A stretch of DNA of 64,000 nucleotides, from positions 9,022 to 73,021 of the IMG/VR virus record IMGVR_UViG_3300030708_002923; one strand, 5' to 3'. A program made the position numbers and the translations under genes. Under the pieces are notes generated by a model, which saw only the letters and a program-made list of their open reading frames with translations, searched no databases and had not been told where the DNA came from. This DNA is from a virus. Lineage: Duplodnaviria; Caudoviricetes. Each line of letters starts with the position of its first letter. Position 1 is the stretch's first letter. Of the stretch, positions 21,150-22,583 are shown piece by piece.

Positions 21150-21368
21150 ATGCCGTTGTATCGATTTGTGTGCGGTGTTTGCAATAACGCTGTTGAGCGC
21201 TTGCAAGCATTCGAAGATCCAAGCCCCCATTGTGGGGCTTGTGCTTTAGATCGTGGCACGTCCACTGAAATGAAAAGAGTAATTTGTGCTACCAACTTCA
21301 CGTTGAAAGGAAGCGGGTGGGCGAAAGATAATTATGGTTTGAAAAATGACAAAAGTAATAAAACTTGA
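21150..21368 (+). CDS. FmdB-family zinc-ribbon protein
   Basis: MPLYRFVCGVC...CGAC...FTLKGSGW. Confidence 0.85.
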   Translation: MPLYRFVCGVCNNAVERLQAFEDPSPHCGACALDRGTSTEMKRVICATNFTLKGSGWAKDNYGLKNDKSNKT

Positions 21369-21474
21369 AAGACGATGCTGTATTGAGTGTGGACACATTT
21401 GGTTTGGTGAACTCAATTGTCCAAGGTGTGATGCACCAGGCGAGCCACTTCATGTTGAGCATCAGGTGCGATGA
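21346..21474 (+). CDS. 42-aa zinc-ribbon peptide (MTKVIKLERRCCIECGHIWFGELNCPRCDAPGEPL...); below the ORF-track cutoff
   Basis: CxxC...CxxC; ATGA coupling to DUF2589-A. Confidence 0.6.
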   Translation: MTKVIKLERRCCIECGHIWFGELNCPRCDAPGEPLHVEHQVR

Positions 21475-21968
21475 TGCCAGATCATTCATTAGACGACATT
21501 GTCCACTCTATACAATCTGCGGTTATAGCGGCGACCGATATTGCAGAGCGCCATGAACTTGATTCGATTAAAAAAGAAGAATTTTGGGAACGCAAGGTTG
21601 ATGACAATGGAGAACCGGTCACAGATGACGACGGAAGACACATATATGTACCTCGCATGGTCGTCATGGAAATCCCAATGTGGGAGGATGGAGTACTGGT
21701 ACGAAAACGCATACCAGTCCCGTTGCAATCGCTTACGACTGGTCAAAGTCTGCGTGTGGATACGCTCGAAGTTGAAATGTCTGTTGAGATTTCAGGCCTG
21801 ACCGCAGACAAGAAAGAAGGCAAGTTGATGGTCCGGCCATGTTCTAATACTCCGTCATGGTTCAAAAAAGAAAGCAATGCTGCTAAAGTAAAGCTGATCT
21901 TCAGGGGCAGTGAGCCTCCAGAAGGTTATGCAAGAATCGACGATCAATTAATCAAACTGCTTCCGTAG
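21471..21968 (+). CDS. DUF2589-family protein (A-type)
   Basis: SLDDIVHSIQSAV, VPLQSL...SLRVDTLEVEMSVEI, C-terminal PPEGYARI. Confidence 0.75.
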   Translation: MMPDHSLDDIVHSIQSAVIAATDIAERHELDSIKKEEFWERKVDDNGEPVTDDDGRHIYVPRMVVMEIPMWEDGVLVRKRIPVPLQSLTTGQSLRVDTLEVEMSVEISGLTADKKEGKLMVRPCSNTPSWFKKESNAAKVKLIFRGSEPPEGYARIDDQLIKLLP

Positions 21969-21977
21969 GAGAGCATC

Positions 21978-22583
21978 ATGGCAGATTCCGGCCTCGTAAA
22001 AATGTCAGACCAGTTTGGTGGTCTACCAATGGAACAACTCATTGGTGGTCCGCTGAAAGCAGCCTGTAACGCACAAACCCTACTGGCTAAGGCATCGAGC
22101 GACTTCATTAAAGATGTCGGTCTCGATGACGATGGCAAGGGCAACATGGCTGCACGCACTGTGGACTTTTCGTTCAACAAGCCTGTACAAGACGCTGCCG
22201 GAAACACGACCATGCAAAAGGTGGACCTTCAGGTTCCACTGCTCGCCATCATCAATACACCAAGCTTGTCAGTCAAGGAAGCTGAAGTGCGCTTCACCAT
22301 GGAAGTTAAGTCTTCTACTTCGAGCAAGCAGACTTCGGATAGCAAGGCCGACCTTACAGCCAAGGCTAAGTACAATGCTGGTCTGTTCTCCTGCGAAGTG
22401 ACCGTACACGGATCAGTGGCGAATCACAGCGAGAACACACGCAGCAGCGACAACAGTGCCAAGTACGACGTAAAGGTCGTTGCCCGCGACGACGGACCAC
22501 CAGAAGGCTTGAGCCGCGTTCTTGATATGTTTAATGATGCTATCGCACCCACTCAGGGCGCTACACCAGTTAAGAAAACCTGA
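21978..22583 (+). CDS. DUF2589-family protein (B-type)
   Basis: FGGLPMEQLIGGPLKAACNAQ, VPLLAII, FTMEVK, SAKYDV, PPEGLSRVLD. Confidence 0.88.
   Translation: MADSGLVKMSDQFGGLPMEQLIGGPLKAACNAQTLLAKASSDFIKDVGLDDDGKGNMAARTVDFSFNKPVQDAAGNTTMQKVDLQVPLLAIINTPSLSVKEAEVRFTMEVKSSTSSKQTSDSKADLTAKAKYNAGLFSCEVTVHGSVANHSENTRSSDNSAKYDVKVVARDDGPPEGLSRVLDMFNDAIAPTQGATPVKKT

Follow-up and report, generated by a model that had tools for sequence, protein, structure and literature searches.

The closest described relatives of the locus reported here are gene cassettes of the DUF2589 family in bacteria and archaea, such as those of Bacteroides fragilis (BF9343_2744) and Archaeoglobus fulgidus (AF0414-AF0417), in which a short member (A) is followed by a long one (B) that carries a hairpin. 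A pair belonging to the same hidden Markov model (HMM) family, with the same gene order and a hairpin in its long member, is present in a 64 kb stretch of DNA (hereafter the window) taken from IMG/VR record IMGVR_UViG_3300030708_002923, the 73,021 bp genome of an uncultured marine phage (CheckV completeness 100%). Unlike its bacterial counterparts, the phage pair is not flanked by an enzyme gene on its strand and is without the third partner of ~90 amino acids (aa) that accompanies some of them.

Other described systems offer likenesses of layout or of possible action. Aerolysin/ETX-MTX2 and other beta-barrel toxins are soluble proteins with an alternating amphipathic hairpin, Ser/Thr-rich arms and an aromatic tip, as is B; the likeness to the stems of these toxins is one of layout and possible action alone, and is no evidence of membership. 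In contrast to aerolysin/ETX-MTX2, to which they show neither sequence nor significant fold similarity, A and B have no signal peptide, possess a helix-sheet-helix core and come as paralogous partners. Pepco/Trypco and EACC1 are small leaderless prokaryotic effectors of protease-linked defence, for which beta-barrel or large membrane pores formed from the cytoplasmic side have been proposed or shown (Evans et al. 2025, PMC12642450). A and B, however, do not match the Pepco HMM, have no protease family among the scanned neighbors, form two paralogous subunits rather than one and show no sign of a cleavable tail. From bacterial gasdermins comes the notion of an inner-membrane beta-barrel pore built by a cytoplasmic protein, but A and B match them in neither sequence nor fold, and have no adjacent protease among the scanned neighbors and no recognizable autoinhibitory C-terminal peptide. 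Finally, holin-endolysin(-spanin) cassettes and type 10 (holin-dependent) secretion are called to mind by the leaderless wall hydrolases found near the pair in bacteria, and by the lysis cassette that adjoins it in most of these phages; holins, though, are small and helical and reside in membranes, whereas A and B are without a transmembrane helix, lie on the other arm of the genome and are dispensable in a relative.

The two genes, and the part of B on which much of the argument turns, are as follows:

21474-21968, + strand: gene A, a short, hairpin-less DUF2589 paralogue of 164 aa (PF11655, 57 bits); the open reading frame (ORF) could also begin at 21471

21978-22583, + strand: gene B, a long DUF2589 paralogue of 201 aa with an amphipathic hairpin (PF11655, 152 bits)

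22311-22457, + strand: hairpin part of B (residues 112-160), delimited by hydropathy and Ser/Thr content per column over 80 representatives

The module is real, ancient, strongly constrained and uncharacterized, and in this phage it is an accessory cassette. As to what it does, our best guess – to which we assign a probability of roughly 0.4 – is that A and B make up a hetero-oligomeric, membrane-active device of the beta-barrel type.

Both proteins score above the PF11655 gathering cut-off of 23 bits, and span nearly the whole model (A: E 3.8e-15, model positions 2-153 of 154; B: E 2.2e-44, positions 1-153 of 154); a scan of the whole genome gave the same result for the pair. The two are homologous by BLASTP (24% identity, E 3e-5) and, when their family profiles are compared by hhalign, at 98.7% probability (E 1.9e-16), with the VPL..SL and PEG motifs aligned. 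The stop codon of A is separated from the ATG of B by 9 nt containing GGAG, and the start of A is itself overlapped (ATGATG) by the stop codon of the preceding ORF, Zn2. Orthologues of A begin MPDHSL or MADHSL, which makes 21474 the most likely start. B is the final + strand gene ahead of the - arm. Two claims of the initial annotation are thereby borne out: that A and B are translationally linked DUF2589 paralogues, and that they come after two zinc-ribbon ORFs, at the end of the + arm. All four of these ORFs are small.

None of the other databases searched says what the proteins are. PF11655 is the sole Pfam family found in A or B at E<=0.1; PHROGs returned no match for either, PADLOC-DB (anti-phage defence models) none for A, B, Zn1, Zn2 or the nearby p218, and NCBIfam a single chance-level row, for B (E 0.048, 12.7 bits vs a cut-off of 601). 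Among GenBank phages B has one distant match (31%) and A has none. Homologues of B are nonetheless numerous – 1717 representatives of 50% identity clusters at E<=1e-3 – and the residues that are invariant or nearly so across the family are Pro, Gly, Phe, Tyr, Ala and Glu. DUF2589 is thus a large family, present in phages, several bacterial phyla and, according to published papers, archaea, for which there is no solved structure and no fold relative. No literature on its function was found: the name occurs only in passing (expression tables, text) and PF11655 goes unmentioned, so the family is as uncharacterized as had been supposed. The longer homologues (353-426 aa) contain no informative fused domain. 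Some B-type proteins (P0128, P0140) have an Ala/Thr/Gly-rich insertion of 110-190 residues after about residue 70, and many from Bacillota and Treponema end in a coiled-coil-like C-terminal extension of ~180 residues; the sites of these insertions and extensions are surfaces tolerant of additions.

Relatives of B are encoded by 177 IMG/VR stretches, of which 80 were examined. B is present in all 80 loci (82-100% identity) and A in 79 of them (median identity 88%). The ratio of nonsynonymous to synonymous substitutions (dN/dS) is 0.06 for A (73 orthologues) and 0.05 for B (80 orthologues), the median dS of 1.1-1.6 being saturated. A and B are real genes under strong purifying selection. Saturated dS together with low dN/dS shows that their similarity reflects long-term constraint and not recent spread; recent horizontal transfer as the cause of the 85-90% identity is ruled out by dS values above 1.

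Constraint on the pair goes together with freedom of movement. The nearly complete phages G003 and G004 have a major capsid protein and a terminase only 23-24% identical to those of the window, yet their B is 84-89% and their A 74% identical. These two genomes (L053 and L079; 67-74 kb) are strongly mosaic, and some of their lysis genes, too, are held in common with the window at 81-91%. The reverse case is G011, a phage of 74,963 bp (CheckV completeness 100%) with a major capsid protein 81% identical to that of the window and the same lysis cassette: neither the Pfam model nor the family profile detects DUF2589 anywhere in this complete genome. The + arm of G011 runs RecE, RecT, p218, Zn2, Zn1 and a couple of small ORFs, followed by the lysis genes; in the place of A and B (L189, G011:C1:9000-23000) stand two ORFs, one of 80 aa and a Cys-rich one of 99 aa, and m126 and m219 are missing. 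The junction of the arms appears to be a place where accessory genes are exchanged. Around it, RecE and RecT occur as alleles ~26% identical, p218 is 30-50% identical in many loci, and the pair moves independently of the RecE/RecT alleles; in 14 of the 79 loci A and B are themselves separated, by 0.3-1.1 kb of other genes. No Pfam match was found for the genes that follow B or split it from A in other phage types. The A/B pair is a mobile, optional accessory cassette: occurring in phages with unrelated structural genes and missing from a complete close relative, it has the distribution of the captured module that the initial annotation took it to be. Scans of viral contigs for further lineages gave no loci with P0246 as query, one (spurious) with P0132 and one with the six-sequence alignment A5.

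The same comparisons bear on the proposal that the pair encodes a routine virion or assembly protein. Its high conservation might suggest as much, since among close relatives the conservation of B is on a par with that of the major capsid protein. Absence from G011, however, argues that the pair is neither essential nor a virion gene, for the capsid there is of the same type; the pair furthermore accompanies unrelated capsids and terminases, occurs in bacterial cassettes outside phages, has no PHROG match and sits on the non-structural arm. We regard a virion role as highly improbable.

Outside phages the pair was followed by scanning species-representative genomes with a bacterial B-type protein as query, which gave 56 loci (L089-L144) in Bacteroidota, Treponema and other spirochaetes, Bacillota, Desulfovibrionaceae, Fibrimonadales and Burkholderiaceae. 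With separate HMMs for A-type and B-type proteins, an A-type gene was found beside B in 47 of the 48 loci with enough upstream sequence, always in the order A then B (AB in 27, ABB in 18). The pairing recurs in Lachnospiraceae and Chitinispirillales, in islands flanked by integrases and in a phage-like contig. A of the window is just 20-31% identical to nearly all aligned bacterial A-type proteins: with the pairing kept over such distances, the two subfamilies appear to have split long ago and to have travelled together since. Judged from sequence, the short/long pairing is both ancient and obligate, and the constant company of the two types suggests that their function is joint and probably heteromeric.

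The bacterial loci adjoin hydrolases or toxin-like enzymes. Neighbors include an Rv2525c-like glycosidase, Peptidase_M15_4/VanY, Amidase_3, GH19, DUF261 (four times) and Exo_endo_phos (four times, with one CdtB-like protein), and a further Exo_endo_phos lies in Lachnospiraceae; PHROGs, run on the bacterial downstream genes, gave the CdtB-like match alone. Four N-termini were checked for signal peptides, and none was found: three belong to the Rv2525c-like, CdtB-like and cyclase-domain proteins, the fourth to a 141-aa protein encoded downstream of the pair in Treponema (L098). A survey of contexts thus places the pair in phages and bacteria alike, with leaderless enzymes as part of its bacterial company. 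In a metagenome-assembled genome of Burkholderiaceae (L084, 6648-9807) the A-type protein is fused to Laminin_G_3, and after the pair comes a leaderless protein whose domain is of the Anthrax_toxA type (edema-factor/ExoY-like cyclase).

Such neighbors could be read as those of a toxin released by lysis: A and B would be freed when the cell bursts and would form pores in competing bacteria or protist grazers, the bacterial versions possibly acting with an enzyme partner. The lack of signal peptides and the accessory status of the pair are compatible with this proposal, as are CdtB-like and Anthrax_toxA-type domains in bacterial cassettes and the one A-type protein joined to a lectin-like domain. 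The phage proteins, however, contain no target- or receptor-binding domain, have no enzyme cargo adjacent on the + strand and are conserved to a degree unusual for proteins engaged in an arms race; the proposal strikes us as improbable. Somewhat more so is a regulatory or nucleic-acid-handling role, in which the pair would serve the replication/recombination module without assembling or touching a membrane. Its site after the RecE, RecT, HNH and zinc-ribbon genes is what such a role predicts, and in the phage-like contig mentioned above the pair lies between nuclease and DNA polymerase genes. Yet the invariant and nearly invariant residues of the family include no nucleic-acid-binding or catalytic motif, the bacterial cassettes stand outside contexts of DNA metabolism, and the pair is independent of the RecE/RecT alleles.

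A third protein, of 86-94 aa and 42-60% identical across phyla, stands beside some pairs. It has no Pfam family on record; an HMM finds it in L145-148, L151 and L190-194, while the window, the 80 related viral loci and loci L089-L144 (56 in number, Bacteroidota and Treponema included) are without it. Examples are:

L145, 8262-8522: third-partner protein

L147, 5638-5913, - strand: third-partner protein

L190, 6192-6467: third-partner protein

L193, 4200-4484: third-partner protein

Analysis of 80 family representatives, 30-53% identical to B, gives the layout of the hairpin. A body strand (residues 97-111) leads into a Ser/Thr-rich arm (112-123) and a stretch in which small hydrophobic residues alternate (124/126/128/130); the tip has the form G-W/F-G-P-F (consensus G-W-G-P-F), after which the alternation resumes (139/141/143/147) and is followed by a second Ser/Thr-rich segment (148-160) and a body strand (161-169). 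In the phage lineage, conservation of residues 111-150 is 91-99%. Conserved across the 80 representatives and again within the lineage, the hairpin is not a loose linker. A has at this position a shorter, non-alternating segment, modelled with low confidence. That B possesses a hairpin with Ser/Thr-rich flanks, and that A lacks it, had been noticed in the window alone; it proves to be a layout conserved throughout the family.

Structure prediction with AlphaFold2 (AF2) yields for B (predicted local distance difference test, pLDDT, 77) an N-terminal helix, a small beta-sheet, a very long hairpin and a C-terminal helix, and for A (pLDDT 63) elements in the same order. Both monomer models are elongated, with long exposed strands – as would be expected of parts of an assembly. 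The prediction of an A:B complex scored 0.09 against a mark of 0.32, and is used as evidence neither way. Foldseek of the B model against the PDB gave nothing at E<=0.001, PDB sequence and profile searches nothing, and the BFVD just two unnamed relatives, while the best ESM Atlas scores (0.78 and 0.75) were to unnamed clusters.

Models of this shape also suit the main rival to a membrane device, namely self-assembly away from membranes. Here A and B would build a cytoplasmic tube, sheet, ring or shell, with the hairpin serving as a strand-swapping interface in the manner of tail-tube and ring builders. Besides the elongated models and exposed strands, the hydrophobic stripe of the hairpin is modest, the pair sits in the replication arm, and, as in lattice proteins, big insertions into loops or coiled-coil extensions of the C-terminus are tolerated by some homologues. 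The top Foldseek rows for B are chains of the FliF ring-plus-beta-collar, although at E 0.2-0.6 and a TM score of 0.15 they are not significant. Self-assembly leaves unexplained, however, the leaderless hydrolase- and toxin-like neighbors in bacteria and the combination of an aromatic tip with Ser/Thr-rich arms. On balance we consider it unlikely, though less so than any of the other alternatives.

The hetero-oligomeric membrane device that we prefer would work as follows. A and B would be soluble, leaderless cytoplasmic proteins – the phage copy of an ancient two-part module – made from the end of the replication arm, with which they are presumably co-transcribed. They would co-assemble into a ring-like hetero-oligomer, in which the B subunits supply amphipathic, aromatic-tipped beta-hairpins to a barrel that inserts into the membrane, and the hairpin-less A is the obligate partner: a nucleator, a cap or a brake. 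Neither protein has a signal peptide or transmembrane helix (no 19-residue window reaches a mean hydropathy of 1.6), and any action on membranes would therefore come from the cytoplasm or after lysis. The most likely target would be the cytoplasmic membrane of the host, reached from inside. The phage could benefit in that a permeabilized membrane helps leaderless enzymes to cross, hastens death and lysis, or excludes competitors. In favor of such a device we count the toxin-like layout of the conserved hairpin, the constant pairing, the elongated models, the swappable leaderless enzymes beside bacterial pairs, the adjacency to the lysis cassette in most related phage loci, and the precedent that Pepco and EACC1 set for small cytoplasmic pore formers in prokaryotic conflict.

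Several observations weigh against this proposal. AF2 confidence is low at residues 116-154 of B, a segment that includes the tip of the hairpin. Aerolysin-type chains appear among the Foldseek rows (1w3a, 2ztb, 5hd2, 5ec5) only at E 1.2-1.7 and TM scores of at most 0.14, the hairpin being modelled with low confidence, and a VIA wide search of the B model gave no Z>=5 (best Z 4.0, to coiled coils). Short, and made up mostly of Ala, Val and Gly, the hydrophobic stripe could equally be a subunit interface. A site in the early/middle arm is odd for a lethal pore unless the pore is restrained. The complete relative G011 manages without the pair, and tens of kb separate B from the endolysin in G003 and G006. 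The initial annotation had offered a pore or a filament, and the support favors neither over the other; exclusion, accessory lysis and toxicity to grazers, which it named as possible uses, are indistinguishable with present data.

The relation of the pair to lysis deserves separate treatment. In the window the lysis cassette adjoins A/B tail to tail, and of 56 related phage loci 42 show the same adjacency; the endolysin-like protein is leaderless. Together with the wall hydrolases that flank bacterial cassettes, this would suit a pair dedicated to lysis as a substitute for a holin, letting the leaderless endolysin reach the cell wall. But G011 keeps the same lysis cassette without A/B, A and B lie on the opposite and earlier arm, and because the endolysin is tens of kb away in some relatives (G003 and G006, as noted) the link to lysis in these phages is weak. 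Moreover, although no canonical holin family was recognized in the cassette, it encodes three proteins with a single transmembrane segment (o105, m103 and m126) that could be holins. There is little likelihood, in our estimation, that the pair is a dedicated lysis component – about as little as for a nucleic-acid-handling role. The endolysin-like gene (24146-25040, - strand) is listed as a 278-aa ORF starting with TTG, and probably starts at Met88 (24721), which gives a product of 191 aa. Its upstream part is overlapped by a 105-aa ORF (24723-25040) with one transmembrane segment, a coiled coil and weak, sub-threshold matches to XhlA and Pepco; m103 (23838-24149) and m126 (22795-23175) have one N-terminal transmembrane segment each.

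A more sweeping version of the preferred reading may be entertained, although we think it doubtful: that the family constitutes an undescribed and widespread two-component beta-barrel pore or translocon of bacteria, archaea and phages, with a new fold and leaderless subunits, which passes leaderless hydrolases and toxins and has become mobile in marine phages. If A and B do form a pore or translocon, they would represent a new machine for crossing membranes without a signal peptide, with consequences for our view of lysis and exclusion in phages, of the way in which bacterial toxins and lysins are released, and of how pore-forming proteins originated. The phage lineage is a natural test case, being abundant in marine metagenomes and carrying a pair that is highly constrained yet optional and that moves between unrelated backbones. 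Even if the idea of a pore is wrong, an obligate and ancient heteromeric pair with an unmatched fold merits a structure.

Two small ORFs precede the pair:

21150-21368, + strand: Zn1, FmdB-type zinc ribbon of 72 aa (TIGR02605, 37 bits)

21346-21474, + strand: Zn2, ORF of 42 aa with a CxxC...CxxC pattern; no family match, a variable neighbor

Zn1 exceeds the TIGR02605 cut-off of 31.3 bits and has CxxC at residues 8 and 28; Zn2 belongs to no family in Pfam, PHROGs or NCBIfam. In 50 of 63 loci Zn1 precedes A, at distances of -1 to 1835 nt, and Zn2 was detected in just 13 of the 80 related loci. Both are kept in G011, from which A and B are absent, so that they are independent neighbors: a zinc ribbon as obligate third partner of A/B is ruled out, and Zn1 is probably not part of the module.

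Immediately beyond B, where the arms converge, folding predicts a structured stretch:

22592-22690, + strand: G+C-rich stem-loop plus a second small hairpin, just after the stop codon of B

Folding of 22584-22700 gives a minimum free energy of -48.9 kcal/mol (z -3.7). In the larger structure a 15-bp G+C-rich stem closes around ~75 nt, and no U-run follows it; an Rfam search of 20000-24000 returned nothing, for the stem-loop or otherwise. A stem-loop occurs at the equivalent site only in the closest relatives (L003, L004, L017 and L043), and could act as a stabilizer of transcript ends or as a terminator for the converging arms.

The remainder of the genome is that of a phage with no cultured close relative: TerL is 28% identical to that of the jumbo phage PA5oct, and no match to the window was found at the DNA level. 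The + arm encodes replication and recombination functions: two helicases, proteins like RecE and RecT, an HNH protein and, as a weak match, a primase-like ORF. The - arm, from 22795, encodes the endolysin-like protein, a weak match to an Rz-like spanin and then structural proteins, among them the major head protein, the terminase and a protein of 1265 aa that ends in an M23-type peptidase. A 73-aa ORF without a family match (25446-25667, - strand) sits between the Rz-like and the structural genes; its C-terminus, basic and histone-tail-like, has four KKPAA repeats. G+C content is 0.53-0.57 over positions 1-8000 and 0.41-0.50 elsewhere in the window. Further along the - strand (30682-42205) are two giant ORFs, 2568 and 1265 aa long; the latter is the protein with the M23-type peptidase/endolysin-like terminal domain; both are probably ejected or tail-associated virion proteins.

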